Of a stretch of 64,000 bases of DNA, positions 18,243 through 41,562 are shown piece after piece. The notes under the pieces were generated by a model, which saw only the letters and a list, made by a program, of their open reading frames with translations, ran no database searches and was not told the DNA's origin. The stretch lies in assembly GCA_963724325.1 (NCBI GenBank), contig CAVRUH010000007.1, positions 128,001 through 192,000 on the forward strand, read 5' to 3'. The first letter of the stretch is position 1; the number at the start of each line of letters is the position of its first letter. Origin of the DNA: Waddliaceae bacterium. GTDB taxonomy: Bacteria > Chlamydiota > Chlamydiia > Chlamydiales > Waddliaceae. The position numbers and the translations under genes are program-made.

Positions 18243-18336
18243 TAGATAAAAAGTGTCCATCGCTGTGCCGACGTGATTCGATCCATTTCATTTACAATGA
18301 GCGCAATTCCGAAATTAACAACATCAGGAGGCGCCA

Positions 18337-23019: not shown

Positions 23020-23269
23020 GGCTGATTCCAAAGATAAAATCGATTTGGTAGCCTAACAACAGGGGATTCGAATGCCTCTTTTGTGCTTTTGCTCAACTTC
23101 AGTTTAAGCACGACTTTCACAACTATCCTTCGCGTTGCAATGGCGGTGCAATGATTTACCTATTTATCCAATAATATCCATCAGAAACCAGTTGCAATTT
23201 GATTGCATATCCTTTAGCATGTTACTCATAGCGGTTGGATGGTGTTGATTGGAGTGGAAGTCCCCCTCC

Positions 23270-23927
23270 CTCATAACCCGCGGGTCACTGGTTCAAGTCC
23301 AGTTTGCCCCACATTTTTTTTACAGGACAAACTTATGACACTCATAGAATCCAAAATGGAATTTGCCGAAAGGAACCATGCTATACTTCTCTCACTGGAG
23401 GCTCAGATTGTAGCGCACTATCAAAAACGTCCTCGCCTTCATGATCACAATGTGATTCGCGTTTTAGAGGCTCTCATAAAGCACTTTAGGGCTTTAGCGA
23501 CAAATTTTCCATTGCCTCAGCATTCATTATCTGAATTCGAGGGTGAAATTTATCTTAGCATTCAATACAATCTAGAAAAAACGGAAGCCCTAACTCCGAA
23601 TGATTCCTGTGTCCTTTTAAAGTTCCTCAAAAAATCTGTAGAGCTAAACAACAAGAGATCGGGCTCACAGGGTTACTTAAACTTCATCAGCCGCTTCATC
23701 GAAGTTGAAATAGAGGATTAGAAACTGGAGTCACTCACCTTATTCACATTAAAATATGTGAGTTAGGCCCTCCGCGTACCCTCAATGGTTATTTTCAAGA
23801 AAAACTTATTTGTTTTTACTCTTCAATAATGCAATTGATTTTCAGTGACTTATCAGCTTTAAAGCATAATCTTCACGTGTTCAAGAAGAGCCTTCGTTCG
23901 CTTCGCTCACTACGGCCAGATGCGCCC
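23270..23927 (+). repeat. att-like tRNA 3' half (23270-23311, identical) and direct repeat copy 2
   Basis: 42-nt exact match to 15123-15164, then near identity through the 128-aa gene. Confidence 0.95.
23335..23721 (+). CDS. Hypothetical 128-aa protein, copy 2
   Basis: Near-identical to 15188-15574. Confidence 0.8.
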   Translation: MTLIESKMEFAERNHAILLSLEAQIVAHYQKRPRLHDHNVIRVLEALIKHFRALATNFPLPQHSLSEFEGEIYLSIQYNLEKTEALTPNDSCVLLKFLKKSVELNNKRSGSQGYLNFISRFIEVEIED

Positions 23928-24042
23928 GGCGTTATTAAAGTAGACCCAACTGTCTAGCTAAAAAGAGGAACATTTATTATTATGTGAAAGTTTGCGAAGT
24001 AATACCGAAAAATAATGTTCTCCATTGAGATTAGAGAGATTA

Positions 24043-24369
24043 TCACAAGACAAACTCGATAATTAGACAAAAAGTGTAGACCATTCCTAAAAAGAGTAGT
24101 GGCAGCAAGTGATAAAGTAGAAAAACAGGCAGGGAGGGATCATGGAGATGCTTCCACCCTTTATAGATTCCAAAAGGTGATGAGAGTGGCGATAGAAGTG
24201 TAATAATTATGAAAGTCATTATCGTTTTTGGATAATCAAGTTCATAATCCGCAAATCCCATGGGTAGAATCCATGTAATAAGTAGCAATAGGATAAAAAG
24301 AAATATGTTTAGGACGGTGAAACCTCTTGCAAGATAAAGCCTGATACTAGCCTTTTCTATAAATTCCAT
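24043..24369 (-). CDS. Small integral membrane protein
   Basis: 108 aa with three hydrophobic segments. Confidence 0.55.
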   Translation of the reverse strand: MEFIEKASIRLYLARGFTVLNIFLFILLLLITWILPMGFADYELDYPKTIMTFIIITLLSPLSSPFGIYKGWKHLHDPSLPVFLLYHLLPLLFLGMVYTFCLIIEFVL

Positions 24370-24577
24370 CTATTAATTCCTTTAAGGTTCTCTGATACTG
24401 CGGATCGTCAAATCCATGCTGTGGACCCGAACTCTTTTGCTGATAGATTATCCGAGTATTCCTAAGTTCTTCAAGCCTTTTTTTATATCCATTGAATTTT
24501 TCCTTCTTATAGATTTCGTACTCTACTCCACTAAACATAAGAATTGCTCCTAGAAGTTGTTTTAAAAATATATTTTG

Positions 24578-25852
24578 TTATCTAATGTGAAAAGAAGATA
24601 CTAACTTATTCCATTCTTCGGAAATTTGTGGAGTTTCGCTATTAAAAGATTGAGTAATTTGATAGAGTCTTCTTTTTTTGAGCACAAACAATGTTCTATA
24701 AATTTTACCTGAATTTTCTGCTAGAAGCTCAATAGAGGGACAACCTTCATGCTCGCCTAAGTTCCAAGATAAAACAATCATTTTATTGCTCAATCCGAGC
24801 CAAGCTAGATCAATGGAACCGTTTTTATCCATTTGACTTTGAATCTCGTTTATCAGCATAGAGATTGAAGGGTCAGAATATTCAAGAATAATTTCGCTAA
24901 ACATCGTCATATTTAAAACTTTCAGCTCAGGGTCTTCAAAATCTGGGTGATTAATCTCTTTTAGAATACCCATATAAGTAACCATTGGTAAAGTGACAAT
25001 GGATTCGATAAAATAGCCGCTGTCACCATACTCTCCAAATAAAGTCTTGGGAGCGAAAGGCCCAAGTCTAGAATAGAAAATTCTGTGATAAATGTTATAT
25101 TTTGGAGGAATATTAATGTCATAAGTGTTCCGACCCAATAAGATATTGCGTTGTACAGTTTCACAAAACAAATTTGCCCACAAAAGTTTATGCCAATCAT
25201 AGTTGAGAATGCTTTGATACTGTCGGTATGATTCTGTAGTAGTTATCCAAGAAGGAATCATTGTGTTTTGAGATTCAATTTTAAATCCTAAATGATATGC
25301 GGGTGTTCCCGAAAAAGCTGGATATATTCCCCATGCAGAAGCTAAATAGAAGATATTTTGAATTTCTAGGCGATATACGAATTGATTTATAGCAACAAGG
25401 AGTCCACGCCGTTCAGATAAATTTCGAAAATTTACGCTAAAATTTGTGGCGCTATTATCGCAATAATACACAGACTCTTTGCCATAAACATGTCCTTTTT
25501 TAAAATAGGAAAAGCCGTCGTTTTCAATTTTATTTAAAAGATCATCCATCCAACTTTTATATTTTACTGAGTCATTTGCTATTGAATTTGGAAGTTTATA
25601 AATCCAAACTTTAAAAGGACCCATGTGTGTTTCACTATAATAATGGGTGATTTCCACATTTTCTTCATGATAGCTTTCCATTCTAGTAGCATCCCAAGTG
25701 TGAAGAGTAATGCGATGATCTTTTGGCCCTGGAATTTCTATTGTATATCCCTTGTTAAGCGATAGAAGCCCCATCAAGTCTATTGCTATTCCCCCAGATA
25801 AAGACCCAAAATGCACCAAAATAAAAAATGAGTATATTAATTTTTTCATCAT
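24578..25852 (-). CDS. Exported hypothetical protein
   Basis: 424-aa ORF with signal peptide; C-terminus loosely PsbP/DcrB-like. Confidence 0.65.
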   Translation of the reverse strand: MMKKLIYSFFILVHFGSLSGGIAIDLMGLLSLNKGYTIEIPGPKDHRITLHTWDATRMESYHEENVEITHYYSETHMGPFKVWIYKLPNSIANDSVKYKSWMDDLLNKIENDGFSYFKKGHVYGKESVYYCDNSATNFSVNFRNLSERRGLLVAINQFVYRLEIQNIFYLASAWGIYPAFSGTPAYHLGFKIESQNTMIPSWITTTESYRQYQSILNYDWHKLLWANLFCETVQRNILLGRNTYDINIPPKYNIYHRIFYSRLGPFAPKTLFGEYGDSGYFIESIVTLPMVTYMGILKEINHPDFEDPELKVLNMTMFSEIILEYSDPSISMLINEIQSQMDKNGSIDLAWLGLSNKMIVLSWNLGEHEGCPSIELLAENSGKIYRTLFVLKKRRLYQITQSFNSETPQISEEWNKLVSSFHIR

Positions 25853-25994
25853 AATGTCAATTATTTTACAGTAATTGTTCTAATAGTGCAACTAAAAAGA
25901 CGAGCTAACGGCAATTAGGAGTTTGTTAAATAAAAGATCAAAAATAGAATAGGGTGATTTTGGCCCCAGAAATATTTTTTTTGAGCTCCAAACT

Positions 25995-26265
25995 GATTTG
26001 AGTTTTTGATCAGCTGATAAAATATTTCAGGGCAAAAGCAACTAATTTTCCATTCCAAGAGTCTAAATTTTCTTTGCCTATTGAAAATGATTTATATGAT
26101 TCGCTTAAGGAATGTCTTGAGGAAACTGAAGGCAAAACAGCTAATGAAGCATATAACATTTTTAAATTCTTAAAAAAATCAGTCGAATTTTGGAACAGAG
26201 AAGGGGGCTCTCAAGGCTGCCTTACATATATATCGCGCTTCATAGATGTTGAAGAAAAAAAATGA
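25995..26265 (+). pseudogene. Divergent, decayed paralog of the 128-aa protein
   Basis: VFDQLIKYFRAKATN...FKFLKKSVEFWNREGGSQGCLTYISRFIDVE aligns with VLEALIKHFRALATN...LKFLKKSVELNNKRSGSQGYLNFISRFIEVE. Confidence 0.7.
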
Positions 26266-26647
26266 TGGGACCCGGGCGTGAAAAACTGACATTTTAAAGT
26301 AAGCATACGCGTATTAAAAGTAAGCGCATATGCACGCCCGACCCCAATCATTTCTAAAGTTATCTTCGATGCCCCTGGCAACATCTTTAGGGTCATCAGG
26401 GTCAATCTAAATAAAAAAAATCTTAATATGTATCCTACTTAAAAATTTAAAAAATCCTCCCAATTTAACCCCCCCTTGTTTTCAATGCAAAATCAGATAG
26501 AAAAATTTTAATTCAAGGGTTTATGTCTATTTTGTTGGCTAGGGATTACAGTGCGACACCTACAGCGTAATCTACAGCGTAATCTCCATAAGTCTGCAGA
26601 AGTAGTTTCCACGAATAGTACCATCACAGAGAGGTGTTACCCATACC

Positions 26648-27409
26648 TTAGACAATAATTAATTCTAGAAATGATTTTTGGTGAGCTTTGGGACGCAAAT
26701 AGGGTTCCTTTTTTGTATGAACAACGATTGCGTAGAGAATTCCTGCTTCCGCAAGAGCTATTGCTTCTTTTTTAAGAAGCCACACACTGTCCTCATGTGA
26801 ATTACCAACTAAAAATTCAGTAATGACATGTCGTTTATTGACTCGAACTCCCTGAACTTTCTTTACATCAATATATTCCTCACGTCCCTCTCTCCATCCT
26901 TCATGTTTTTTCATAGCATCAAGCAATTGTTCATATTCTTTGTCGTTTAGGGAACGAATCGTGCGATCCATATCAAATTTAGTAAAAAATTTAATCGCTT
27001 TTCGATAGTTAATGACTTCTTCTGTATCGGGTTGTCCCTTTTTGACACCAGTGTAAGTACGTACAAATTCATTGAGGGTGCAATCAATATACATATTGCC
27101 TTCTTTTAAACGTAAGGCCTGTGCCCTTCTACCAGTTTCATAATCAGGATAAACTGCAAACCTATAATCTTTGTTTTCTTTATTAGGTATCTTCCCAGCG
27201 GAACCGATAGCTCCGTTCCTTTTTGCGAAATCTCCCATTGCGTGATTACCAGGATTATTATTTCTCCATGATCTAGTACTTGCTTGATCCACTGGCTGTT
27301 CTGGATAGGCTTTCCAAAAGCGCTTTAAATGATTCCCATCTTCATCATAATAGATGACCGAATTTTCTGGCCCTTCTACAACTTTTATCCATTTATTTTG
27401 AGTCTTCAT
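26648..27409 (-). CDS. Lysozyme-like (RNNNPGN family) protein with DUF3892-like C-terminal domain
   Basis: RSWRNNNPGN, FAVYPDYETGRRA, MKKHEGW; C-terminal EAIALAEAG...PYLR. Confidence 0.65.
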   Translation of the reverse strand: MKTQNKWIKVVEGPENSVIYYDEDGNHLKRFWKAYPEQPVDQASTRSWRNNNPGNHAMGDFAKRNGAIGSAGKIPNKENKDYRFAVYPDYETGRRAQALRLKEGNMYIDCTLNEFVRTYTGVKKGQPDTEEVINYRKAIKFFTKFDMDRTIRSLNDKEYEQLLDAMKKHEGWREGREEYIDVKKVQGVRVNKRHVITEFLVGNSHEDSVWLLKKEAIALAEAGILYAIVVHTKKEPYLRPKAHQKSFLELIIV

Positions 27410-27577
27410 ACATTTACTTCAGGTTTAATCAACAAAATAGAATAAATTATAAATTATTAATTTTAAATAACTTGTCTACGAATTATAGCAGATTAGGAGA
27501 AATTTTTCTAATCAAAAATAAATGGTTCAAAATGGTCCCCTTTTGGTAATATCGCCTCTTCTTGGTAGGGAGAAATT

Positions 27578-28273
27578 ATGGTTGATGCAAAACGTATTAA
27601 CAGAAATGGTGCATGGATTTCTTTTTCTATAGCTCACAGCCTCCTTATTTTTTTGGGAATACTCGTTGTTGGGTGTGAAAAAAACGGTGAGATTGACGTA
27701 GATGATCTCAATTCTGAGAAAAATATTTTTATTAGTAGGGTTCTTGATGCAGAGCTAGGCGAGGGACCTTTTTTTATAAACTATTCGTTGAGTACAGTCT
27801 TTTTTTCACAAGATATTGTAAGCATCTTTGGAGAATTCACACGTTATACAGACTTCCCACATGATCGTAAGCATTATGAAGGAAAAACATTTTGTAGAAT
27901 AAATGGAAAATTCCAATTAATATCTTTCGATGATCTTTTTTCTGCTGAAAAGCAAAAAGAATTTATCAGAAAGTATTGTGAGGATGTTCTCAAGGCTAAG
28001 TCTATAGGCTATTTTGGTGAGGATCCACCTCTTCGCGATCAACTTGATTTAAAGGAAATTCAAACATTTTTAATTCATGAAAATTTTTTTATCATCGTAT
28101 TCCAACGTTATATTGTAGCCGGTCTTGACGATTATCCGACAACATTACGAATTCCTTACAATATTTTGAAGGGTCATATTAATCCAAACATTCCTTTGAT
28201 CACACTCTTAGAAAAAACAGTAAAATCAAATTCTTTTATTTCTTCTTGGGAAGATGTTTTGGGTGGTTCGTAG
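27578..28273 (+). CDS. RsiV/DUF3298-like putative lipoprotein
   Basis: LVVGC lipobox-like motif; YTDFPH...TF, ISFDDLF, IVFQRYIVA...LRIPY. Confidence 0.65.
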   Translation: MVDAKRINRNGAWISFSIAHSLLIFLGILVVGCEKNGEIDVDDLNSEKNIFISRVLDAELGEGPFFINYSLSTVFFSQDIVSIFGEFTRYTDFPHDRKHYEGKTFCRINGKFQLISFDDLFSAEKQKEFIRKYCEDVLKAKSIGYFGEDPPLRDQLDLKEIQTFLIHENFFIIVFQRYIVAGLDDYPTTLRIPYNILKGHINPNIPLITLLEKTVKSNSFISSWEDVLGGS

Positions 28274-28443
28274 ACACACACGAAGCCTCTCTTTTTATTG
28301 CATTTCCCGTGCACTGGCGGTGCAACGGTGCAGTACTTTATCCATTTTCAACCGTCAAAATTCGGTAGCAATAAATACATAAGTCATTTATTATCTTACT
28401 CAAAGCGGTTGAGTGGTGTTGATTGGAGTGGTAGTCTTCCTCC

Positions 28444-28695
28444 CTCATAACCCGCGGGTCACTGGTTCAAGTCCAGTTTGCCCCACATTTTTTTACAGGA
28501 CAAACTTATGACACTAATAGAATCCAAAATGGAATTTGCCGAAAGGAATCCTGCAATACTTCTCTCCCTAGAGGCTCAGATTGTAACGCACTATCAAAAA
28601 CGTCCTCGCCTTCATGATCACGATGTGATTCGCGTTTTAGAGGCTCTCATAAAGCACTTTAAGGCCTTAGCGACAAATTTCCCATTGCCTCAGCA
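28444..28695 (+). repeat. att-like tRNA 3' half (28444-28485, identical) and truncated 128-aa gene, copy 3 (from 28508)
   Basis: Match to 15123 onward stops abruptly next to the IS481 end. Confidence 0.92.
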
Positions 28696-28699
28696 GGTG

Positions 28700-29470
28700 C
28701 GGTTACAGACATAGGTTACACTTTTATTGTTAAAATGTTATATAAAAAGCAGGGGGCAACTAGCCCCCTGCCAAAAAAACATCCGTCACCCATCGTCTCT
28801 CGGTCGCAGCGGGGAGTTTTCTTCTTGGTACCAATAATTATACTATGTATGGTCAAAAGATGCATTAGGAAAATACACAAGAAAACATCTAGAATTTTGA
28901 GTTTTGAGGGAGCTGTGGGGGTTTCTTCTTGGTCGGGGGTTTGGGGGCTGGCCCCCAATATATTCACTTCCGATCGTTGTCATTAGCGCTGCCTCCTTCT
29001 CTTAACTTTTGGTTTTTCAAGCCCTTCCTTTACAAGTTTTCCTAAGTATATAGGTCCATAATAAACATCATATTCCCCCTGTTCATTAGCCTTAAGACCA
29101 ACATATTCTCCAGTAAGCGTTTGTCCAATATAATGATCATTCTGATGTAACCATAAACAACCACTTGCACAAATCTTTCTAACAATCATTTTTTGTGTGT
29201 CGTATTCTGGTTTCCTTAAAACTCCATCCCAAGTCCGTAAGGATTTAGTATAAACACTTGCTGGTGTTTGCATATTCAAGGCTTCATGAGGCCTTTCAAA
29301 GTTATATTCGTCTAAGAATTTGCTGTTCGCTTGTATTTGCAATACAAGGGATGCTTTAGCAGGGTTTGCTACTTCTTGTTGTAGTGTAGAATGGAATCTC
29401 TCGTGCCTTCCATTTTCCTCAGGATGTCCTGGATTTATCCACTCAGGGATAACTCCAGCTTTAATTAGAT
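28700..29470 (-). mobile_element. Right-end fragment of an IS481-family element
   Basis: Transposase C-terminus (PGHPEENGRHERFHSTL, YNFERPHEAL...TPASVY) and terminal motif ACAGACATAGGTTACACTTT at 28705-28724, matching the 17133 motif. Confidence 0.82.
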
Positions 29471-29781
29471 TGGCGTGATTTAGTCGGAATAGCAACGTAG
29501 ACAAAGTGAGGGATTTGTGTGGTGATTTCGTGATAAGCCAAAGCAGAGATCAGGCATATAATTCCGTTAGGAATTTTTTTCAAAACAAGAACAAGATCAG
29601 GCTAGGAAAAGTCTGGGATTTCAATTAGCCCATAGACTCCTCTAGCTAATTGTTCCAAGAGCCCCTCATCTCACATCTGATATAGTGTGCGTGGGTGAAT
29701 GCCCAATTGGATAGCTTCACCCGAGCGGAGGAGTCCCTGGTGTGATTTAAAGTGCTTGATCGCTATCTGTTTTGCATTCAT
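29466..29781 (-). pseudogene. AbiEi-type (type IV TA) antitoxin pseudogene, absent from the ORF track
   Basis: Manual translation: MNAKQIA...GLLRSGEAIQLGIHPRTLYQM*DEGLLEQL...PDLVLVLKKIPNGIICLISALAYHEITTQIPH; internal stops; cut by the IS481 fragment. Confidence 0.75.
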
Positions 29782-29871
29782 GGATAGTAATGTCGGTAAA
29801 TGTTAACATTTTACTACATTCTTATCCATATTGCAGAGTATTCCTATGAGCTCTTACTGCCTAGAAACAAC

Positions 29872-30650
29872 TTAAAGTTCTAAAAGCTTTTTCATAGTTT
29901 TTTCAAAATGAAGCTTACGTAGCCTGCCAGAGGGGTCTTGCGCTTCCAATTTAACCCAGTCATTTGGAGAGGCATTGTCAAGCCAGATTCGTAGATTTTT
30001 CTGAAGAGTTTTAAACCATTTCGGATGCTGTTTTGCCAATACGTTGAATTCAATTAGAGCCCGATCAGAAAAATCGCCTAATTGGGAAGTGACATACCAA
30101 ATACCATAAAGATCCTTAAGAATCTTTAAAGCACTTTTGCGTTTCGTAAAAGTAAGCCCCTTATGGAATATCCAAGCACCTGGTGTAACTACATTTCCTG
30201 CAATGTTTGAGTGGGTATGAAACTTTATGGTTGTCTGCAAGCTTAAGGTTAAATAGCTTAGCGGTTGGGCAACCACACCAGCAATGACGACATTTTTATT
30301 TTTGTTTTCCTGACTAGAGTCATCCGTCAAAAATTCAATTTCAATTTCAGCGCCTGCAATTTCCTTCACATAGGCTTCTGTCGCAGGATCTCTAAATCTT
30401 TAAAAACATGATTGAAACCTGCTTCTCGAAGATAATTTTGAATGTTCTTTTTCGAAATTTGTGGGATTTTCCTTGGAATAAGAGAATCGATATCTCTTGT
30501 TCCTACTGGAGGGTTCTTTAATTTTGGATCAGCTAGATAAAGCTTGTAGATAAAGAGTGCAAATCCACCTCCAATGACGATAAAATCTCGCCATGGACCA
30601 ATAGATTCTAAAAATTCTGAAATGATTTTGTCTTCTTGATTAGATGTCAT
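29872..30650 (-). pseudogene. Nucleotidyltransferase toxin (AbiEii/GSU2403-like), split by one frameshift near 30390
   Basis: IVIGGGFAL...GTRDID motif; second part has IEFLT, HKGL...R...K..KDL. Confidence 0.78.
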
Positions 30651-31379
30651 GACGATTTACCACTTTTATAAATACGCTTAAGCTCTGGAAGACGTTCTGC
30701 CATAAATTCTGCTTGTTCTTGTCCACGTAAAGGAAAGTGATATAAATCCAAAAAAGTCAAAATAGAAGGAGAGACATTGATATCTAGATTTGAGTCAGAA
30801 GCATGCTTAAGCAAGCTTTTGTAGTAAGGTTCTATAAGCAAAACTTCATAGCCTCTTTCTTGAGGTTCTAATAGTAGCTTTTTCTCAAGTTGTGGTCTAA
30901 CCAAAGGATCAAGCAGGTATAGTTCAAGAGTGTTTAAGTTGGTGTTTTTATATCCATGCGCTTCAGCAGCAGAATGAAGAGCCAATGCTACCTTATTGCT
31001 TAGATTTGACTTTTTAATTGCCTCTAAAAGCTCTGCTTTATCTTGGAACCCAGAACGATAAGTTCTCATTTTGCATTTTTTTACGATGCTGTAATGTTCT
31101 AGCCAGCTTTCAAGAAGGCGTTTGGGATCTTTCAAGAAAAACTTTTTGGCGGTTCTTATTCCTTCGGCTTGCAAAATTCCTTTTAAAACTAAAGTCCCAA
31201 AGACGCGTTGTACTGATCCAAGACTTACCCCAGCTTCTTTAGACACATTTCGCACGGATAACTCTCGACTCTTTGATGCCTTCTCTCAGCAACCAATCAA
31301 GAACCACGGCAGATTTGTCCGAATAGATATTCCCTTCCACAGGTTTTTCATTCGAGCCTATCAAAAACCGACCTTCCAT
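30647..31379 (-). pseudogene. AbiEi-like winged-helix antitoxin, frameshifted near 31265
   Basis: AAGGAGG RBS before ATG 31379 (MEGRFLIG...VLDWLL), continuing as VRNVSKEAGVSLGSVQRVF...LLESW...FLDLYHFPLRGQEQAE. Confidence 0.75.
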
Positions 31380-31392
31380 ACGACCTCCTTAT

Positions 31393-31448
31393 CTGTTCAT
31401 TATTTTATACTGTTCAATATTTATGGAACAGTATAAAATATGGAACAG
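31393..31448. promoter_or_regulatory. Long inverted repeat, probable AbiEi operator
   Basis: CTGTTCATTATTTTATACTGTTCA / TGGAACAGTATAAAATATGGAACAG immediately upstream of the antitoxin RBS. Confidence 0.7.
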
Positions 31449-31490
31449 CGAATATTAACGTAAAAAGTTTAAAGAAACAAGGAGAGTCTA

Positions 31491-32033
31491 ATGACGAACA
31501 CAACAAATTCTTCAAGTCAAAAACAAATCAGAATGCCAGTACCTGTCGATTCCTTAATCACCATTCTACATAATATACAATTGAAAATTGATTCAGCTGC
31601 TGGCGCTGCAACAGCGCTAGAGCTCCGGCTGCGAATTATCGCTCAGATAGAAGAGAAAGTTCGAGATGAACTAAAGAAAAATACAAAAGACCCTTTTCAT
31701 CAGGCAACTCTTAAACATCTCATTTCAGCAGTCCTTGAGGTATTTCAAGATAAACTTGATGCAACCGAGCAAAGTATAATAAAACAATGCCGCCCCCCTC
31801 GCAATAAAACTGCGCATGGCAGCTTTGCTGAGTTAATGATCGAACTGGCAGGGGAGGCTTCTGGTAGACAGCTTGATAATCGCACATTGAAACCATTACC
31901 TTTAGCAGAAGATGATATAATTGAAGGAGCAATATGCATTGAGAGAAATGGTGGTTTAGAGGATTTTTCAAAACTTGCAAACCGTGCAGTATCAATTCTT
32001 GAAGAAAAAATTATACGCCATTTAAAACCTTAA
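31491..32033 (+). CDS. HEPN-motif protein, putative RNase
   Basis: Helical 180 aa with RNKTAHG (R-x4-H). Confidence 0.6.
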   Translation: MTNTTNSSSQKQIRMPVPVDSLITILHNIQLKIDSAAGAATALELRLRIIAQIEEKVRDELKKNTKDPFHQATLKHLISAVLEVFQDKLDATEQSIIKQCRPPRNKTAHGSFAELMIELAGEASGRQLDNRTLKPLPLAEDDIIEGAICIERNGGLEDFSKLANRAVSILEEKIIRHLKP

Positions 32034-32304
32034 TTGTAATTGTAAAATGACTCATCATCAATCGGACCTATTGAATGGCCCAATGCTGATTGTCCTCATG
32101 ATAAAACCATTGTCATTTTTCAACTTTTGCATACGTTTTTATCATTTGCAGATCATGCAAAATCCGTGGACCACTGGTGGGCCAAATAGGGGCAGCAAGT
32201 GGCATGAAATAGTATCAAATTGGCTTGGACGAAAAGGGCTTTTCGCTGTATAGTGGTTGATGTCAGCTACTGTATGTTGCGGTGGTTTATTAACAGGGGA
32301 TGGC

Positions 32305-32346
32305 CTCATAACCCGCTGGTCACTGGTTCAAGTCCAGTTTGCCACA
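32305..32346 (+). repeat. att-like tRNA 3' half (2 mismatches)
   Basis: CTCATAACCCGCTGGTCACTGGTTCAAGTCCAGTTTGCCACA. Confidence 0.92.
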
Positions 32347-32367
32347 CTTTTTTCTGTGTTGGAATTC

Positions 32368-32754: not shown

Positions 32755-33096
32755 GTTAATTAGTATATTCTTTAACATAGATTATGCTGGATGATCATAA
32801 AAAGGGTCATAAAAAAGAGAAAAGAATGTGGTCAGGCCTGCACATTTTGACCCTATTTGGATCTTGCAGCAAGTCATGAGGTGCCCAAGCACTATCTTTG
32901 CCACTACTCCAAGAAATAAGAGTTTTTCTACTCATCATAACTCACAAAAACTTCCGATGGAGAATCTTCCATCTTCATAATTTAAAAGCGCATATCCATC
33001 CTTGGCATTAGTAACTCAAGGGGGCATATGCCCTTACTTGTTACCGTTACTTATATATAAAATGTATATTAATTAGGATATATTTTTATAAAAAAA

Positions 33097-34044
33097 TTAT
33101 CCCCAATAACAATTTTTTTTACTAAATTGCTGGTTTACAAATTTTCGACGTAATTTCAGGTTGACTGGTTTGGAGCCCATGTCTTCAATAAAATTCATAA
33201 AATCTTTCATCCATCGTGAACACATTCCTTGAGGTGTATGTTTCATATAATCCCAGCTTTTATAAGCTGCATGTAAAGTATGAAAAGGACGAGAGGCTTG
33301 ATGTTTTCTCTGTCCGCTTCCTTTTCGTTCACTGAGTCCTAATTTCACATAATCATTATTAGACATGCCAACCTTGCAAGTTTTAATTTTATCTAAATTC
33401 TCAATAACCCATTTGATGCCTTCTCGTTTCAACCATTCCGCTGCTTTACTTCGCGTGATTCCCCATCTTTCAGCCCATCTTGCAATTGTTAAGTTTTCAC
33501 CATTATGTGAATAGAAAATACATCCTCTTTTATTATCGTTTTGGTTTTTTACCGAAGCCCAACGACAGTTATCGGGAGAATATCCTTTATTATTGTCGAT
33601 TCTATCAAGAGAGGTGTTTTCAGGTTTCATTCCCATATCCAATAAAAAATTATCAAAGGATCCTGTATCCCGATGCCATCGGTCACAAACGTTGATTCCA
33701 CGATCGACATAATTTTTCTTTTCTTTAATTGTTTTACCTTCGCATCGACGATGCATATAGTGCCAAGCCATATACGTTTTGTAATTAGGACTATTTATAG
33801 CACAGCATCCATGTGTTCTTCTAGGTCCCCCAAGTAAAGTTTGAATTTTTTGGGAGCACTCATCACAACACATGGTCTTAAAAATTTGCGCACTACTTTT
33901 AGTACGTAGTTTCCCGCAATTACAACGAATAATATATTTTCGAGTGCGTCCTACCACTCCAAGCAACTGAACAACAGTCCAATGATTGATGCACTGGCCA
34001 ATAACAATCTTTTTATTTTGCTTATTTTGTATTGATGACAGCAT
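33097..34044 (-). CDS. Phage-type HNH homing-endonuclease-like protein
   Basis: CNCG..., W..M.RRC, RGINVCDRW...F.NFL.DMG.KP...SLDRIDNNKGYSPDNCRWA, with a degenerate second copy at the C-terminus. Confidence 0.8.
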   Translation of the reverse strand: MLSSIQNKQNKKIVIGQCINHWTVVQLLGVVGRTRKYIIRCNCGKLRTKSSAQIFKTMCCDECSQKIQTLLGGPRRTHGCCAINSPNYKTYMAWHYMHRRCEGKTIKEKKNYVDRGINVCDRWHRDTGSFDNFLLDMGMKPENTSLDRIDNNKGYSPDNCRWASVKNQNDNKRGCIFYSHNGENLTIARWAERWGITRSKAAEWLKREGIKWVIENLDKIKTCKVGMSNNDYVKLGLSERKGSGQRKHQASRPFHTLHAAYKSWDYMKHTPQGMCSRWMKDFMNFIEDMGSKPVNLKLRRKFVNQQFSKKNCYWG

Positions 34045-34119
34045 TGATTATAGTTTTTTGTTTGTAAAATGATTGAATTCAAGAAATGGCCCGAAGATCT
34101 CGAACCAAAAAAGCTTATC

Positions 34120-34707
34120 TTAAAAAGGTAAACGACTTTGATAAGGATCACTTTTAGCAGATTCGAAAGACTGATTATAATTTGGAGAATACTCAAAAAT
34201 ATTATCTTGATCTTGCTGTGTTTTTAAAGCTTCAATAATCAGCTTGTAAAAACTTGATAGTTCCTTTTCGATTTTAATTCGAAAATGCGACTTTGTCTCA
34301 ATTAGAGGTTTGGATTGAGATAGAATTGATTTTCCATCTTCGTATCTTTCAAGAATTTTTTCTCCATCAGCATACTTGAAAACTTCGCTTTGAGTAACAT
34401 AGACGTTATAACTAAAACGATATTCAGTCTTATTTTTTCCCCATACTATGCAATGATCTGTATGTCTTATGAATTCGTCCTGATAAGGAAATTTTTCCGT
34501 TGAATTTGGTCTTACAAATCTTGTTTTTTCAGATGAAAAAACATAAGTAAAGGTAAATGGAATACCTGCTGTTTTCAACCTTTCTTCTAATGCTTTAATG
34601 TCATTAGAAATACGGTCCAAATCTTGAAGATGATTAGAAATTACGGAGTCCGCTTCAGAATTAAGTATTTGAAGGGAGGTTGATACAAAAGATTTTGTTG
34701 ATGTCAT
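34120..34707 (-). CDS. Hypothetical protein
   Basis: 195-aa ORF with AAGGA RBS. Confidence 0.6.
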   Translation of the reverse strand: MTSTKSFVSTSLQILNSEADSVISNHLQDLDRISNDIKALEERLKTAGIPFTFTYVFSSEKTRFVRPNSTEKFPYQDEFIRHTDHCIVWGKNKTEYRFSYNVYVTQSEVFKYADGEKILERYEDGKSILSQSKPLIETKSHFRIKIEKELSSFYKLIIEALKTQQDQDNIFEYSPNYNQSFESAKSDPYQSRLPF

Positions 34708-35033
34708 AATATAAATCCTTAAAATTTGTGAATTTTATTTTTTTTAATAATTACACAACAGTGCAATTACCCAGATTCAACCTTGGTTTTTCATTCAAGA
34801 TTCAGGATTCCAATTCAAGGAAAAGCCCATTCAAGGGTTTAAAACAAACTGCTATCAAGCAGTTAATGAGAATGACTTTAGCAAACATTATAATTACATA
34901 CAAGAAAAAAGAAAATTGTTGTCGGTGTTCGAGTTATTTGGCTTTCGAGAAATTTGCATTAATATGCACATGCTAAGTTCATTTATTTCCTTCTACTGCC
35001 TTACCTTCAGAATCTATAAAGATAAGGGGGGCA

Positions 35034-35083
35034 GGCTTGGCATGCGGACATTTGATCGGGATCAAATGTCCGCATGCCAAGCC
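35034..35083. repeat. Perfect 24-bp-arm palindrome of a dispersed REP-like family
   Basis: GGCTTGGCATGCGGACATTTGATC-GG-GATCAAATGTCCGCATGCCAAGCC. Confidence 0.9.
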
Positions 35084-35341
35084 CGACTCTTTTTTCTACT
35101 GATCATTAAGAGAAATATTGTCTTTAACTTCTTCATATTTATTTTCAGCTTCAACAAAAATTATTTAAACAAGTCTATAATTTGATTTTTTGAAACTTTC
35201 ATGATAAGATTTTAAAAAATAACATCGGAAAATTCAATACAAATACTATCAAAAGCATCTTGCTTTTGGCTTTATGATTTTTTGTATGTTTTGAAATATG
35301 AGTACCCGCTTGACTTAATTGGGCACCTGACTAATTACCAA

Positions 35342-36448
35342 TCACGATGTACATAGCGTAAGAGGGATTAGGTCCGTATAAGCAACCATCTCTTTAGGAG
35401 AAATGTAGTTGTGCGCAAAAAAATCGGTTGATGCCGCATTTCTTTTCTCCGCATTATCATTATTTTTTTGAGGAATTGGGATTTGATTGTACGCTTGAAA
35501 TGCCGAAGGCTCAAGCAACAGCATTTTGATGACTGAAATGCGAGAGATTTCCAACAGATCAAACAAGTCTTTAATTTCGGGTGTCTTCTCCTGGCGGATC
35601 GAGGACCCCGGGAAAGAGAGGTCTTTGACATACCCATGGAGGCCTGGAGGTCTATGGTCATCCCAAATAGCCTTTAGCCTTGCCTCAATCTCTTGTGAAG
35701 TGAAAGATTTTCCATTTATAGCAGAGGAAGTATTTGCTAGGAATGATCCTAACCTTGAAGCAACTCGATTAGCATGATGACGACTAGGATTGCCCACCAA
35801 AGCGTCAAGTAAAGGAAACAGCTTGGAAAAAGAGGAACTCGCATAGTGCAGGCGCTCCCAGATTACCGCTTCAAAAAACAATTGTAATGTTAAGTATGGG
35901 CGTGGCATGTGTTGACGTTGTTCAAGACAGTTTAGGATGAGAGGAAATAGTTTACCTGCCAGTGAGAAATCCTCTACTTCGTACTGTAGCAAGGGTTTGC
36001 CATTGACATCATGTGGAAAGAAACTGTCAAGACAAACATTAGTGCGATGGTTGATGTGGTTTGTTTCATGACCCAATAGCCCATCTTCCAGTGTACCGTA
36101 TGTGAAAGATCCTCCGATTACCATACGAATAGGTTTTGCCAAGTGTAGTGCACCCAGCATGGCCCAACCATAACGCCGAGCCCTCTCAACGGAAAGAGAG
36201 GAGTCAACCTTAAGACATGCATGACATTGATCCATTCCAAGCCCATGTCCAGGGTAAACCCATGCACCTAGTCCGACATGGCGTTCTGGTGGGGAACCTG
36301 GGTGAGCTCCATGTACCACGGCGTGATATGGGGTTGAGGCTAAGTAGATGCCGGAAGAAAGAGGAATTGGCAATTGGCGATATAATTCGCCTGCTATTGG
36401 GAGGTGCGTGAAGAGAAAGTAGTGGTCGCCGTGTTGTGGTTCTTTCAT
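35342..36448 (-). CDS. ApeA-like HEPN domain protein, putative defence RNase
   Basis: C-terminal helical domain F..L...LDAL...RVASR...LKAIWDDHRPPGLHG (R-x4-H); GC visibly higher than flanks. Confidence 0.6.
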   Translation of the reverse strand: MKEPQHGDHYFLFTHLPIAGELYRQLPIPLSSGIYLASTPYHAVVHGAHPGSPPERHVGLGAWVYPGHGLGMDQCHACLKVDSSLSVERARRYGWAMLGALHLAKPIRMVIGGSFTYGTLEDGLLGHETNHINHRTNVCLDSFFPHDVNGKPLLQYEVEDFSLAGKLFPLILNCLEQRQHMPRPYLTLQLFFEAVIWERLHYASSSFSKLFPLLDALVGNPSRHHANRVASRLGSFLANTSSAINGKSFTSQEIEARLKAIWDDHRPPGLHGYVKDLSFPGSSIRQEKTPEIKDLFDLLEISRISVIKMLLLEPSAFQAYNQIPIPQKNNDNAEKRNAASTDFFAHNYISPKEMVAYTDLIPLTLCTS

Positions 36449-36616
36449 GATTTTATTCCGTCTGCTGGTGTTTTTCTAGTGTTTTGAGTCCTTATAAGAG
36501 CCATGCCTAAGATCCTTCAAAGTTTATATTTGCAAATGACTCAATGATGTTTGAAATCATAACATGTATTTGCATAAAATTGCAACATATGTTATAATAA
36601 AAAGAAACAGGGGATT

Positions 36617-37414
36617 GTGTTTATGGAAACATCTTTAGGTAAACGAATAAAAGCCTTGCGTGAGGCTCTGAGAATAAGCCAAGAGGAATTATCGCAAAGA
36701 TTAGCATTGGATAGAGCTTCGCTGTCTTTAATCGAAAATGACAAACGCTCATTGAAAGCTGATGAACTTATTTTACTATCAAAATCTTTGAATATTTCGA
36801 TTGATGAGTTGTTAAATCTCAAGTCGTCAACAGAAGTTATTTTGGAACAGGCTCAGAAGCCAAAAGAAAAAAGAAATGACTTACGGATTAGCGTTCCAAG
36901 AAAAAACCTGAAAAAGTTTAAGGAAGTTCTTCTCTATATATTGGGAAAGGTTGGAGCAAAACCAAATGTGGGTGAAACTGTCTTGTATAAGCTGCTGTAC
37001 TTTATAGATTTCAACTATTACGAGAAATATGAAGAACAACTCATTGGAGCCACATACATCAAAAACCATCATGGCCCTACCCCAATCGAGTTTCAGTCCA
37101 TTGTAAATGAGATGATAGAAAACAAAGAAATCGAAGTTGTGAAAAGTAAATATTTTCAGCATCTCCAAAAAAAATATCTACCTCATCAAGAACCCGATCT
37201 TTCTGTCTTTAATGCAAATGAGATCAAAGTGATAGATGATGTGTTGCAAAAATTATCTGGCATGAATGCTTCAACAATAAGTGAATACTCTCATCAAGAT
37301 GTCCCATGGATGGTCACATCGGAAAGGCAAAAAATTGATTATGAATCTGTATTTTACCGAACCCCTGCATATAGCGTAAGAGAGTATAGCAACGATGAAA
37401 TTCAAGCACATTGA
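36617..37414 (+). CDS. XRE HTH + DUF4065 (Panacea/SocA-like) antitoxin
   Basis: N-terminal LGKRIKALRE...SQEELS...ASLSLIE; LYKLLYFIDF, HGPTP, ISEYSH.DVPW. Confidence 0.88.
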   Translation: MFMETSLGKRIKALREALRISQEELSQRLALDRASLSLIENDKRSLKADELILLSKSLNISIDELLNLKSSTEVILEQAQKPKEKRNDLRISVPRKNLKKFKEVLLYILGKVGAKPNVGETVLYKLLYFIDFNYYEKYEEQLIGATYIKNHHGPTPIEFQSIVNEMIENKEIEVVKSKYFQHLQKKYLPHQEPDLSVFNANEIKVIDDVLQKLSGMNASTISEYSHQDVPWMVTSERQKIDYESVFYRTPAYSVREYSNDEIQAH

Positions 37415-37763
37415 GCAGCTAGATAAATTCAAGAAAGATCTAAAAAAACTCCTTAAAAGATTTCCCAGTCTTGAGGAAGATTTAGACTCGCTTGTGAAAG
37501 CACAATTGATTGCTTATCATAAACTCAATGTCGACAATCATGGCATCTTTGCAATCGAAAATCTTGCAATTCAAAATCCTAAAATTTTTAAAGTTAAGAA
37601 GTTTGCTTGCAAATCGTTAAAAGGAAAAGGTGTTCATTCTGGTATTCGCGTCACATATGCATATTTTCCAGTTGAAGACAGAATAGAGTTCATCGAGATC
37701 TACTACAAGGGTGATCAAGAGAATGAGGATAGAGAAAGGATCAAAAATTATTATATAAAATAA
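37395..37763 (+). CDS. RelE/ParE-like toxin
   Basis: FKKDLKKLLKRFPSLEEDL...KGKG..SGIRVTY...IEIYYKGDQEN; overlaps the antitoxin. Confidence 0.8.
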   Translation: MKFKHIEQLDKFKKDLKKLLKRFPSLEEDLDSLVKAQLIAYHKLNVDNHGIFAIENLAIQNPKIFKVKKFACKSLKGKGVHSGIRVTYAYFPVEDRIEFIEIYYKGDQENEDRERIKNYYIK

Positions 37764-37887
37764 CCTATGCTTTTAAAATATTAGCTATTACTTTAAATCA
37801 CCTAGTAAGAAAAGGATTAAGTCTAGAAGAATGGAGATCTTTAAGGATGCAGTACTCTGTATAATCCATTGATATTGGATTCCATTA

Positions 37888-39636
37888 TTAATTTACATTG
37901 TACGTAAATTCTACCGATTCCTTTCTTCTTTCATCTTTTGGGACATAAGTTTTTAATAGATTTCCGAGTAAATTTCCTTTTTTAATCTCATAAGTTTTAA
38001 AATAACGATTAACACGTTGTTTATTAGCTCCCCAATAACTACCAAAACCATCGGGTTGATTAATCCAATCCCAATCTTTCTTTTGGACCATGCCGGTAAC
38101 TCCTGAGGAAACATTATTTTCAAGAAATGGAATATGACGGAAATTCATATATTCTGTATCAATAAAGTAAATTCCTTCTTCACCTTGCGAATCCCTTCCT
38201 AACATGAAATTGTCGCCAAGAAAGTCTCCAAAACCGGTTGCTTCTAATATTTTGAGAAATTCAGTGACTTCTTCTCTTGTAGTGCCTCGTTCCAGAGGAG
38301 TGATATTTTCCGCAAAAATAGTTACTTGATCGGAAGTTAATTCTAAATTGTAAGGACTTACTACTGCAGGAACAGAAGTGATTCCTTCATTCAATACAGC
38401 AATTTTTTTGGGAACCTTAATATGTTTTAAGCCTAGCTCCTCAGCTATTCTTTTTATGTAATTTGCCCCTTGAATTCTACCTAAGTCCCTTCCTTTATCC
38501 CAATAAGCTCCCTTAGGATGATTTTGATCAACAAATTCCTGCTTAGTCAGCAACCTACCAGATTCTCTTAAATCTTCAAAAAATTCTATTCCAATTTGTT
38601 GAACCTCTTCATTGCTCATAGAATGTCTAAAAATACTAGGTCCTAGGGTCCTCTGTTCTATTTTTGTGCGCAATTCAAGATTTTTATGAGGACATTTCTT
38701 GTTAAGCGCTTGAATGAAGTTTGTTTCAAGAATAAGGGCCTTCTCAATGATTTTTTCATTGACCGCATTGAATGAATTCGCAGTTTGAGTAAAATTAAGT
38801 ATTTGAAAAATTATAGATTCACTAAGACCATCATAAAATCCTCGAATCTCTTCTTCTGTAACTTCTTCATTCTTGATGATGGCTATTAATTTTTTTGTAT
38901 TTTGCTCCTCTTCAAGGCGACCAGTATCTTCTTTAAGCCAATTTAAAAATTCTGGATTTGTTAATTCGTCAACTGGTTTAGGCTCTATCTTAACACCAAC
39001 ATTTGAAGGAACAAGATTTGACGAATTTTCTTTTGCTTCCGGTTCTTCAACTTTCTTTAGATATTCTTCATCTCGTTCCCTTGCTTCGTTTTCAAGTTCG
39101 GACTTTCTTCTTTCTTCTTGAACCCTTAGTGCCTCTTCGCGTTCATTTTTTAAGTTTTTGAATGCTGACCGAGCTAAGTGACCCCTAAATAGGCTTTGAA
39201 TTTTTGTTGCGGCGATGTTTTTTGTTTGTTCTGTTGGTTCGTTAATCTTTTCCTGTGAAGATATGTCATTAATATTTTGATCTAAGGAAGAATTAGAGGG
39301 TTGATCATTGGAAGGAATAGAAGATTCAAGCAGAGCAAAACGAATATTTTCTTTAGACTTAATAAATAGGTTTCTTATGGATTTTGAGAAGAGTGCTAAA
39401 CATAAGGTGCATATGACAGCAACAGTTCCCAATAATCCTCTTCCAAAATGTTCTAAACCGGAGAAGGCGCGTTCTCTTTTTTCAATAATGCGATATTGAC
39501 GACCTTTATAATCAGAGCATACTCTATGTCCTTTTTCATCAACGAGTCTATTCGTGCTGTTAAATTTCGTCGCTAAAACCCATTTATCACTAAGGCTAAT
39601 TTCGTTTATTATGCTAATTATTTTAAACCCTGGCAT
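37888..39636 (-). CDS. IQ-motif and kinase-like domain protein, candidate effector
   Basis: Hydrophobic N-terminal segment, AATKIQSLFRGHLAR, coiled coil, GDFLGDN (D-x4-N) and IYFIDTE. Confidence 0.68.
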   Translation of the reverse strand: MPGFKIISIINEISLSDKWVLATKFNSTNRLVDEKGHRVCSDYKGRQYRIIEKRERAFSGLEHFGRGLLGTVAVICTLCLALFSKSIRNLFIKSKENIRFALLESSIPSNDQPSNSSLDQNINDISSQEKINEPTEQTKNIAATKIQSLFRGHLARSAFKNLKNEREEALRVQEERRKSELENEARERDEEYLKKVEEPEAKENSSNLVPSNVGVKIEPKPVDELTNPEFLNWLKEDTGRLEEEQNTKKLIAIIKNEEVTEEEIRGFYDGLSESIIFQILNFTQTANSFNAVNEKIIEKALILETNFIQALNKKCPHKNLELRTKIEQRTLGPSIFRHSMSNEEVQQIGIEFFEDLRESGRLLTKQEFVDQNHPKGAYWDKGRDLGRIQGANYIKRIAEELGLKHIKVPKKIAVLNEGITSVPAVVSPYNLELTSDQVTIFAENITPLERGTTREEVTEFLKILEATGFGDFLGDNFMLGRDSQGEEGIYFIDTEYMNFRHIPFLENNVSSGVTGMVQKKDWDWINQPDGFGSYWGANKQRVNRYFKTYEIKKGNLLGNLLKTYVPKDERRKESVEFTYNVN

Positions 39637-39916
39637 TTTTCACCTAATTGATTACAAGTTAATGACTTTAAAGAAAATTGTAACAGATTAGATAATTTAA
39701 ATCAAGACCAAACTTCTACACCTCTACGCCATGAATGGCACTTTGTGACCAACAGGTTTAATCTGATAAATGTAAGAATTGGACCAACGGTGGACCAAAT
39801 AGGGACATCAAATTACATGATATCAGATAAAATTAGAATAGACTGAAAAGTCTTGAGGCTGCTATCTTGATTTATGTCAGCTCTTGTAGTAAGCGATAGT
39901 TTGAGGATCGCTGACA

Positions 39917-40010
39917 GACTCATAACCCGTGGGTCATTGGTTCAAGTCCAGTTTGTTCCACTTTTTTACGGTACACACTTATGATACCCATAGAATTTGC
40001 CGAATAAATC
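39917..40010 (+). repeat. att-like tRNA 3' half (4 mismatches) and eroded start of the 128-aa gene
   Basis: GACTCATAACCCGTGGGTCATTGGTTCAAGTCCAGTTTGTTCCA then ...ACTTATGATACCCATAGAATTTGCCGAA. Confidence 0.88.
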
Positions 40011-40300
40011 CCTAAAAAATATGCGACCGGTTCAGCACAGGTTTCATCTCATTTCACAAGATTTTCGGATGCATCAACATACTATTGAATTTTTACTTTA
40101 CAGCTTTACTCTGCTATTTATGTGAATCCAATAAACATCGTCTGTCTGGATAAAATAAATAATTTTGATTCTGGATTTTTCACAGCGCATGTGTTGGAGT
40201 ATATGGAAATTTCAAATAAAATCTCCGTCTAGACATGGAATAGTTTTAGTATTATAGTGAGTAAATATGTTATCGTAGAACCTTTAGTTTTGGAGACCTT

Positions 40301-40750
40301 GTGGCAATGAAGAATTACAGAGTTGAATTTATTGATAAAGTTTCTGAAGAATTAAAGAAAATAGTGCTTGAAGGTTTTGGCCGTCACTCTATCGAAATGA
40401 CAGGGCATGATGAAAAATTTGAATCTGTTGCTTTTGTGGCCTATAATGGTGATAATTTTGCTGGAATAATTGAAGTTGTTTTATTTTGGGGAGCTCTTCA
40501 CATCAAAAAAGTTTATATAAATGAAGACTGCCGCGGGCAAGGACTTGGCAATAAACTAATGGAACTTGCTTGTGGATATGGTCGGGAAAATAAATGTCCA
40601 TTCGCATTCGTTGAAACGATGAGTTTTCAAGCACTGGGTTTCTACCAAAAAAATGGGTTCCAATTAGAATTTACTCGTCCTGGATATTCACATGGATGCT
40701 CATTTCATTACTTAAAAAAAGACCTTATGGTACACCTACGCTTCATTTAG
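40301..40750 (+). CDS. GNAT acetyltransferase
   Basis: RGQGLGNKLM, QALGFYQKNGF. Confidence 0.88.
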   Translation: MAMKNYRVEFIDKVSEELKKIVLEGFGRHSIEMTGHDEKFESVAFVAYNGDNFAGIIEVVLFWGALHIKKVYINEDCRGQGLGNKLMELACGYGRENKCPFAFVETMSFQALGFYQKNGFQLEFTRPGYSHGCSFHYLKKDLMVHLRFI

Positions 40751-40962
40751 CTTGCATACGACCCCTTCTGATTTTGCAAAGATCTATTAATCGACTGGGA
40801 ACAATTTGATACTTGCAGTAATGACGCTGCCGACAATGAGTTTCTTGCCAACTGGTGGAAAAACTATGCTCTCTGATAAAATTATGAAAACAATCTTACA
40901 CGAAGAAAAAGAGACCGATGTCAATCAGAGATATGAAAGTAAATAATTATATGGTTTAGGAA

Positions 40963-41376
40963 ATGCGCAATATGAAACAAATAAATCGCTACGGTGCCTA
41001 TGGGATTGTTCTAGTGGATTCGAAAATTCTGCTTACTCAAAAAAGAGGAGGCCCATACAAAGGGCTATGGGATTTGCCTGGAGGTGGTATTGAGTTTGGC
41101 GAGTCCCCTGAAGAGGCTCTTCGGCGTGAACTACATGAAGAGGCAGCATTGACTGCAGATGAGGTCCATCTGTCAAGAGTCATAACCTTCAATGGAAAAT
41201 ACGATAATGACGGTGAAGAATATATTTTTCACCACATCGGTCTCATCTATAGCGTTTTGAATGTAACATCAAATCCAAATCTAATGCCCGAAGAAGAATT
41301 GCGATGGGAGGTGCCAAGGAATATCGACAGGGAAGAGCTAACGCCGTTTGCTAAACAAGTAATAGAAGGCTTGTAA
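40963..41376 (+). CDS. NUDIX hydrolase
   Basis: LPGGGIEFGESPEEALRRELHEEA Nudix box. Confidence 0.92.
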   Translation: MRNMKQINRYGAYGIVLVDSKILLTQKRGGPYKGLWDLPGGGIEFGESPEEALRRELHEEAALTADEVHLSRVITFNGKYDNDGEEYIFHHIGLIYSVLNVTSNPNLMPEEELRWEVPRNIDREELTPFAKQVIEGL

Positions 41377-41532
41377 CATTTCGATGCAGAAGTCATGGCA
41401 CGCATATGGAACAGTTCGGCCCTATAAATCTAACCAAGTCTCAGCTTTTGCCTGTTGAACTTTTGCAACCCTTCTGATATCCTATTGCTGAGAACAGTTA
41501 ATGACTATTGTAAAGTATTGGAAATAAGCGGC

Positions 41533-41562
41533 CTCATAACCCGCGGGTCACTGGTTCAAGTC
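41533..41562 (+). repeat. att-like tRNA fragment (30 nt identical, truncated)
   Basis: CTCATAACCCGCGGGTCACTGGTTCAAGTC. Confidence 0.88.

Follow-up and report, generated by a model that had tools for sequence, protein, structure and literature searches.

Downstream of a tRNA(CAT) gene in a Waddliaceae bacterium lies an array of five genomic islands, each ending in a short tandem motif with a period of 11 bp that stands 134 to 139 bp before a copied piece of the tRNA. As judged from sequence, these motifs are very probably the far-end (P-arm) arm-type sites of the tyrosine integrases behind five successive insertions. The stretch studied here (the window) comprises 64,000 nucleotides (nt) of contig CAVRUH010000007.1, positions 128,001 to 192,000, in an assembly of 2.37 Mb that is 85% complete, and a gene of the chlamydial CT021 family is present in it, which points to an environmental chlamydia as host. 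ARAGORN calls the target tRNA as tRNA-Met, two further CAT tRNAs being present in the genome, and its identity may be that of tRNA-Ile2. Five copies of the tRNA 3' half follow it (at 23270, 28444, 32305, 39919 and 41533), each starting at CTCATAA, the 7-nt anticodon loop; these cores delimit islands 1 to 5, of 8.1, 5.2, 3.9, 7.6 and 1.6 kb, respectively. At ends 1, 2 and 3 identity with the tRNA starts at base 1 of the loop, and the short overlap region common to attP and attB, the attachment sites of element and host, appears to be this 7-nt loop. Islands 1, 2, 3 and 5 all begin with the same flanking sequence (flank X), which carries a 128-amino-acid (aa) open reading frame (ORF), and the motifs fall into three sequence classes, termed A, B1 and C. 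The features are as follows, with positions counted in the window:

15091..15165, + strand: tRNA(CAT), the target gene, with its anticodon loop CTCATAA at 15123-15129
15123..15788, + strand: core and flank X at the left end of island 1 (128-aa ORF at 15188-15574); left-arm pair absent
23134..23153, + strand: class A arm pair of end 1, period 11, 134 bp before the core
23270..23936, + strand: core and first copy of the tRNA 3' half (23270-23312), then a copy of flank X, 97% identical over 667 bp
25990..26253, + strand: broken fifth copy of the X ORF within island 2, without a core
28308..28327, + strand: class A arm pair of end 2, 134 bp before the core; a third, partial copy comes next, at period 8
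28444..28695, + strand: core and second copy of the tRNA 3' half (28444-28486), then a copy of flank X, 96% identical over 253 bp and interrupted by an IS481-like insertion
32165..32188, + strand: class B1 arm pair of end 3, 138 bp before the core
32305..32343, + strand: core and third copy of the tRNA 3' half
39778..39801, + strand: class B1 arm pair of end 4, 139 bp before the core
39917..39996, + strand: core (starting at 39919) and fourth copy of the tRNA 3' half, then a short relic of flank X, 85% identical over 81 bp from the core
41394..41413, + strand: class C arm pair of end 5, 137 bp before the core, the weakest of the five pairs
41533..41562, + strand: outermost core, its tRNA 3' half ending after the T-arm

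All five motifs had been described in a sequence-only reading of the window, and their coordinates, their sequences and their distances from CTCATAA (134, 134, 138, 139 and 137 bp) proved correct, as did the presence of further blocks shared by ends 1 and 2 and by ends 3 and 4. The two 7-mers within each pair agree at 7, 5, 6, 7 and 5 of 7 positions (ends 1 to 5), and the form TG..TG with period 11 and at least 5/7 matches is found at 2283 of 4,748,724 genome positions. The proviso that such repeats might be equally frequent at random positions can be set aside, given that a period-11 match of at least 6/8 in a slot of 12 positions occurs at 4.0% of 5000 random genome sites versus 5/5 island ends, and one of at least 7/8 in the same slot at 0.58% of random sites versus 3/5 ends. 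Because ends 1 and 2 are homologous to each other, as are ends 3 and 4, only three ends are independent; the homologous ends do keep their distance from the core (134 and 134 bp; 138 and 139 bp), as the same reading had anticipated. Each of the five pairs departs from its class consensus by 1 or 2 changes at most. Short soil-metagenome contigs agree with end 1 and its junction at every base, which speaks against an assembly artefact there, although contigs and assembly may stem from one sample.

Do the same pairs recur where the islands are better preserved? Relatives were sought in 401 genomes of the order. In 89 pooled distinct att copies, which were partly selected via the motif itself, period 11 at -144 to -133 relative to the core scores 59, other periods and positions scoring 0 to 14, and the signal is limited to period 11 and to -144 to -121. 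Att copies found by BLAST with the tRNA 3' half alone carry a pair matching at least 6/8 in 27/32 cases and at least 7/8 in 22/32, and copies chosen through their adjacent integrase have a pair of at least 6/8 in 23/31; none of 38 stretches before intact tRNA genes scores with period 11 in that slot. A degenerate pattern combining the three classes and the core hits 164 sites in 106 of the 401 genomes, compared with 6 for the reversed control, and its spacing is class-specific.

Intact relatives have, moreover, a second pair of the same kind between the core and the integrase gene, starting at about +115 to +134. This left-arm pair is found at 75/77 cores with an integrase after them versus 5/30 cores without one. 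Of 23 elements that have a full-length integrase and two cores, 22 show left and right pairs agreeing at 13 or 14 of 14 positions (mean 13.6/14; shuffled pairings average 11.0, and 0 of 5000 shuffles reached the observed mean), and three segments with a truncated integrase (L010, L087 and L089) have mismatched ends. Direct-repeat pairs thus stand on both sides of the core, at a fixed distance from it, in intact relatives and in an intact tRNA-Lys element of the same genome (see below), which supports the earlier proposal that a conserved geometry here marks what would be arm-type integrase sites. Joined together, the left and right ends give a reconstructed attP of about 270 bp with one direct-repeat pair at the outer end of each arm; in the window islands, the right-hand pair is the sole surviving one.

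Cores in relatives often precede a tyrosine integrase of 352-370 aa, a close family member (E of 1e-70 or better) being encoded in 183/401 genomes searched, with its nearest relatives in Waddliaceae, Parachlamydiaceae, Rhabdochlamydia and Chlamydiales. The protein carries the PF00589 domain, and residues R210, K235, H297, R300, H323 and Y332 are invariant among eight aligned integrases, so that the recombinase linked to the cores of relatives appears to be catalytically intact. A quick IQ-TREE search was run on 95 full-length proteins, the 12 shorter of the 107 found having been left out. The left-arm classes form clades in this tree (SH-aLRT, the Shimodaira-Hasegawa-like approximate likelihood ratio test: A with A2 100, C 93, B1 99, B2 99, A3 98), and all arm labels together require 12 changes, compared with 49 after shuffling. 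Identity between the A, B1 and C integrases is 25-36% over residues 1-60, 32-42% over the core-binding part and 37-50% over the catalytic part, and 56-66% within each of these classes. Scanning related genomes for each motif class, as the sequence-only reading had advised, turned up co-occurring integrases, and arm classes A, B1 and C go with separate integrase lineages. The accompanying estimate of about three distinct integrases for the one tRNA site stands for the window, whose three classes trace to three lineages, and falls short for the order as a whole, where more lineages exist: A2, A3, B2, B3, C2, E and other arm words occur at the same tRNA in other genomes, so that at least eight words use one tRNA site across the family.

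In a structural model of the integrase, a three-strand sheet plus a helix is predicted at the N terminus with a predicted local distance difference test (pLDDT) score of 85. A three-stranded sheet with a helix is the arrangement of the lambda and Tn916 arm-binding domains, but fold searches with the N-terminal model yielded no more than weak matches (see below). Separately, one element (L126, in genome G296) combines an Arg in N-terminal strand 2 with a TGGACC pair; its near relatives (L115, L118, L131 and L148) have Gln and TGTGCC, and distant B1/B2 clades also combine a strand-2 Arg with TGGACC. A residue-to-base code linking the two was considered and is kept as a hint only, with one independent case (L126) to its credit and Asp at the aligned position in P2.

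Which of these lineages brought in which island? Over 150 bp, arm identity is 54-57% to class A for ends 1 and 2, 55-63% to B1 for ends 3 and 4 and 42% to class C for end 5, identities to classes other than their own being 27-38%. Two islands also retain recognisable element sequence:

17226..19175, + strand: class A element backbone remnant in island 1, comprising a 338-aa gene, a helix-turn-helix (HTH) gene (18273-18542), a DUF927 primase fragment and a fragment of the last backbone gene
29888..32350, + strand: right-hand 2.5 kb of a class B1 element in island 3, comprising an AbiE toxin-antitoxin pair, a HEPN gene, the arm and the core

The island contents agree with the arm classes, because the 338-aa gene tracks class A (matches in 8/9 class A elements and 0/12 others; it sits after the integrase in intact elements) and the right 2.5 kb of island 3 resembles the right end of an intact B1 element (L075), at 86% identity. 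The HTH gene is likely of excisionase type. That the 338-aa gene might be an IS481 fusion to a dead recombinase was considered and rejected, as it is the regular second gene of class A elements; its similarity to the gene behind the tRNA-Lys integrase is not significant. Besides the integrase and the second gene, intact elements in relatives encode an HTH protein and a large protein of primase type and bring defence-like cargo; with this content they look like satellite or mobilisable islands. As to cargo within the window, the AbiE pair of island 3, with its toxin gene split, and the HEPN gene (29872-32033) are of the defence or addiction type, island 4 has an HTH-SocA/Panacea antitoxin gene with a downstream gene for a likely 122-aa toxin (36617-37763), and an HNH endonuclease is encoded at 33097-34044.

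The same genome offers comparisons at two other tRNA genes. At tRNA-Lys(TTT), the element L003 (G000:C1:53383-68361) is intact, 15 kb long and bears TGGTGCA repeats at both ends; having a clade A integrase as well, it serves as an in-genome control. Its integrase nests within arm class A together with three other integrases adjacent to tRNA-Lys or tRNA-Glu genes, a grouping that suggests a switch of target with the arm word kept. At tRNA-Thr(CGT), a 2.7-kb island devoid of an integrase (G000:C1:246056-249005) shows a TGGCAC pair that precedes its core by 137 bp; a left pair is lacking and the duplicated flank measures 228 bp, a layout like that of the window. A class B1 pair with a CAAATAGGG tail (G000:C1:257760-257790), 9 kb past the tRNA-Thr island, has no tRNA core found behind it and is possibly an orphaned end.

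In contrast to intact elements, none of the five islands has an integrase: neither Pfam (PF00589) nor tblastn with the 95 family integrases detected one, or a fragment of one, in the array, and the hits of the tblastn search across the assembly were limited to the integrase of the tRNA-Lys element, a P4-like integrase and XerC/D. The left-arm pair is likewise absent at all six window cores (scores of 2-5 of 8), and since the left pairs are gone and flank X stands at the start of four islands, the islands are to be seen as right-hand remnants. The sequence-only reading had several integrases competing for the site; with no matching integrase in the array or in the assembly, competition today finds no support and could only be historical. 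Different arms do not seem to be required for coexistence either, 11 of 20 neighbouring hits being of the same class (a hand count of the matches listed, confounded by host range); same-class elements are frequently adjacent, and stacking thus does not depend on the arms being distinct.

Several points weigh against assigning the motifs to integrase arms of three lineages. The class labels were set after the sequences had been seen, kin share labels, and the left arm adjoins its own integrase; clustering in the tree is for these reasons insufficient alone for co-evolution, and what it displays is separate lineages. The tree itself comes from a quick search rather than a finished careful one. 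End 5 resembles class C arms weakly (mean 42%, against 30-36% for other classes), and one full-length element (L084, second) has mismatched ends (10/14). Fold searches with the N-terminal model gave weak matches, to a double-stranded RNA-binding domain and a GCC-box domain, with a best Z of about 5 (2gcc: Z 5.1, root-mean-square deviation 4.0, 50 aligned), and no integrase arm domain was among the matches listed. Finally, because the assembly is only 85% complete, a matching integrase could be real and missing from it.

The duplicated flank deserves separate consideration. Copies of the 128-aa X ORF lie at 15188-15574, 23335-23721, 28508-28693 and 25990-26253, plus the short relic, and have no Pfam or PHROG match. 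They differ mostly at synonymous sites, the first two by five synonymous and two non-synonymous codons. In its own genome X is confined to this locus, and distant matches occur in 5/400 other genomes. Flank X as a standard part of the att arm in the order was rejected, 0 of the returned X loci being at a core, as was a recent tandem duplication of island 1, whose left end is 97% identical to its counterpart but whose cargo differs and whose right arm has clearly diverged. Long flank repeats are not peculiar to the window: besides the tRNA-Thr island, one of 294 bp exists in G001, and among segments of other relatives they are found in 4/12 without an integrase (those with enough flank to judge) versus 1/15 with one, the latter being two paralogous elements. 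A 65-bp palindromic repeat is present in two copies in the window (35033-35097 and 48552-48616, 91% identical), and a similar word occurs in the flank of G090.

How, then, did the array come about? In the explanation that fits best, five elements would have entered the anticodon loop of tRNA(CAT) in succession, inserted by integrases likely of the A, B1 and C lineages, each with its own repeat word, whose N-terminal domain would bind the arm pairs of an attP of about 270 bp and whose core domain would cut at the 7-bp loop. The islands would now be fixed remnants for which self-excision is impossible, and their retained right arms could act as distal attR sites once a class-matched element integrates at the tRNA. 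Chance repeats, by comparison, are next to impossible: the words are short and weak period-11 matches are frequent (4/6 in a 6-position slot at 14% of sites), but conservation in relatives, with 164 pattern sites against 6 in the control and with its specificity of position and period, refutes this reading. It is also very unlikely that the motifs act in promoters or are bound by another factor, be it a repressor, an excisionase or a host protein. The left-arm copy does occupy a plausible operator position, the integrase start codon lying some 80-150 bp downstream of it; for the right-arm copy, however, there is no gene to control, its distance from the core is fixed and it varies with the integrase lineage across many hosts, the pair is absent before intact tRNA genes (0/38), and the layout is that of known attP sites.

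The origin of the flank invites two further scenarios. It might stem from an aberrant type of excision, like the one that yields specialised transducing phages of lambda, with the arm pairs as passive hitchhikers: a circle made up of the element's right part, attR and flank would re-enter the tRNA by homologous recombination via core plus X. This would yield the layout tRNA-X-cargo-arm-core-X in one step and would suit both the variable repeat lengths (667, 253, 81 and 228 bp) and the X breakpoints, one of which falls on a short palindromic repeat and another on the end of an IS481-like element. Yet a separate illegitimate event is required for each of four islands at one locus and for the tRNA-Thr island, and four low-depth soil runs contained no such circles, which leaves this route somewhat unlikely. 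Adding to the successive insertions rather than replacing them, the islands might alternatively form a stack of cassettes mobilised in cis. A class-matched element would enter at the tRNA, supplying attL and integrase, and excise out to a distal right arm of its own class; the integrase-less islands would be carried to a related strain, from which the helper would afterwards excise precisely. The arm class would set the reach of the helper (A: islands 1-2; B1: 1-4; C: 1-5), and the predicted outcome, tRNA-X(donor)-cargo-arm-core-X(recipient), would explain why right arms were kept and left arms lost. In keeping with this, all five right pairs are near their class consensus (1 or 2 changes), the flank copies are 3-5% apart, mostly at synonymous sites, as expected of alleles of related strains, and long flank repeats favour integrase-less segments (4/12, plus G001 and the tRNA-Thr island, versus 1/15 integrase-bearing ones). 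In G090 and G092, an island that has no integrase but keeps a class A right arm comes after an intact class A element, the G090 case carrying a 282-bp flank repeat, and cis-mobilisation of decayed elements is described in the part of PMC5704250 consulted. Nevertheless, the cases of helper plus island are two only, and both involve the class that is most common; G001, a genome of the same genus, has decayed arms, and the retention of right arms is to some extent a matter of ascertainment, many att copies having been found by that arm. In addition, one of the four long repeats (L253) contains a left arm, the G090 flank holds dispersed repeats, and neither circles nor excision joints were seen in the four low-depth soil runs, which cover small pieces. 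Taken together, such a cassette stack is rather unlikely. The same applies to its more general form, a doubtful one, in which a one-armed cassette system with an arm code would need only the right arm, a class A, B1 or C integrase supplying the left site: the integrase would collect all that lies before an end of its own class, be it the nearest or the farthest such end, and recurrent rounds of uptake and release, from one strain to another, would leave a duplicated flank heading each island.

Successive insertion followed by loss of integrases and left arms has consequences beyond this locus. The word at an island end would reveal which integrase lineage brought the island in, even after the integrase gene is lost, and a common family sharing one core but differing in arm words is useful for asking how the arm-binding domain reads DNA. 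Its members could perhaps serve as integration tools in chlamydiae, a group with few genetic tools; were the arm-code cassettes real, the family would offer a natural set of integrases that all use the same target site but have arm specificities that can be separated.

Past the last core (41589-64000), the window holds accessory-looking genes of lower GC content (35%); these genes, together with the truncation of that core, mean that the array may once have reached further. Each outer part of the window also has a tandem paralogous pair: two 900-aa ankyrin-repeat proteins at 10-5585 and two genes for 260-290 aa, without Pfam match, at 61698-63551.

The design of arm sites is itself textbook; here integrase genes and near-end repeats are lost. 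In the literature searched, whose coverage excluded most subscription journals, no description of these arm classes in chlamydiae was found. Several described systems nonetheless share parts of the picture. Decayed elements without integrases, stacked at one gene via repeated integration and deletion, are known as cis-mobilisable elements (CIMEs) and tandem accretion (Pavlovic 2004 and Bellanger 2011, as summarised in the portion of PMC5704250 consulted; for ssrA islands of Dehalococcoides, see the parts consulted of PMC3146451). The window islands resemble them in having lost integration and transfer genes (0/5 with an integrase). According to the same partly consulted sources, CIMEs keep both attL and attR, whereas the window islands keep the right arm only, the left pair being absent at every window core, and begin with a duplicated flank. 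Within the environmental chlamydiae, Pam100G of Protochlamydia amoebophila is likewise a modular tRNA-anchored island with internal direct repeats (PMC548262, consulted in part); it differs in its tRNA-Gly target, its 17-bp repeats and its tra unit, and the portion of the description consulted does not speak of arm sites or integrase classes.

The layout of the sites themselves has its closest counterparts among phages. The sequence-only reading had likened them to those of lambda-type integrases, a comparison that holds as far as arm-type sites are concerned, but paired 11-bp repeats on both arms fit P2 or mv4 better. Phages of the P2/186 type have one direct-repeat pair at each outer arm end (Nilsson et al. 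2011, PMC3448106, consulted in part), as in the attP reconstructed here, and the annotated arm sites in the P2 record also repeat with period 11. By contrast, family integrases are only 22-29% identical to P2 Int, in partial alignments, and the P arm of P2 starts about 63 bp before the core, compared with 134-139 bp in the window ends; unlike P2-like prophages, moreover, the elements here are primase-bearing islands, and no fewer than eight arm words are in use at a single tRNA site. Both the homology of the integrases and the spacing of attP place these elements outside the P2/186 type. In mv4, each arm of attP needs two direct repeats of 11 bp that lie side by side, and it is these repeats alone that stabilise integrase binding, according to the part consulted of a preprint (bioRxiv 10.1101/2023.11.06.565760). 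As far as the portions consulted describe them, mv4 and the Cluster J mycobacteriophages (PMC3706429) both have a tRNA target and, outermost on each arm, one pair of adjacent direct repeats of 10-11 bp, as here; that of Cluster J is the tRNA anticodon loop, and mv4 shares the 7-bp overlap, its attP measuring 215 bp versus the roughly 270 bp reconstructed here. The sequences and the hosts are different, and the likeness is one of attP layout, by which the motifs at the five island ends would work like the attP arms of P2 and mv4 while belonging, by sequence and spacing, to an integrase system that does not appear to be of the P2 type.

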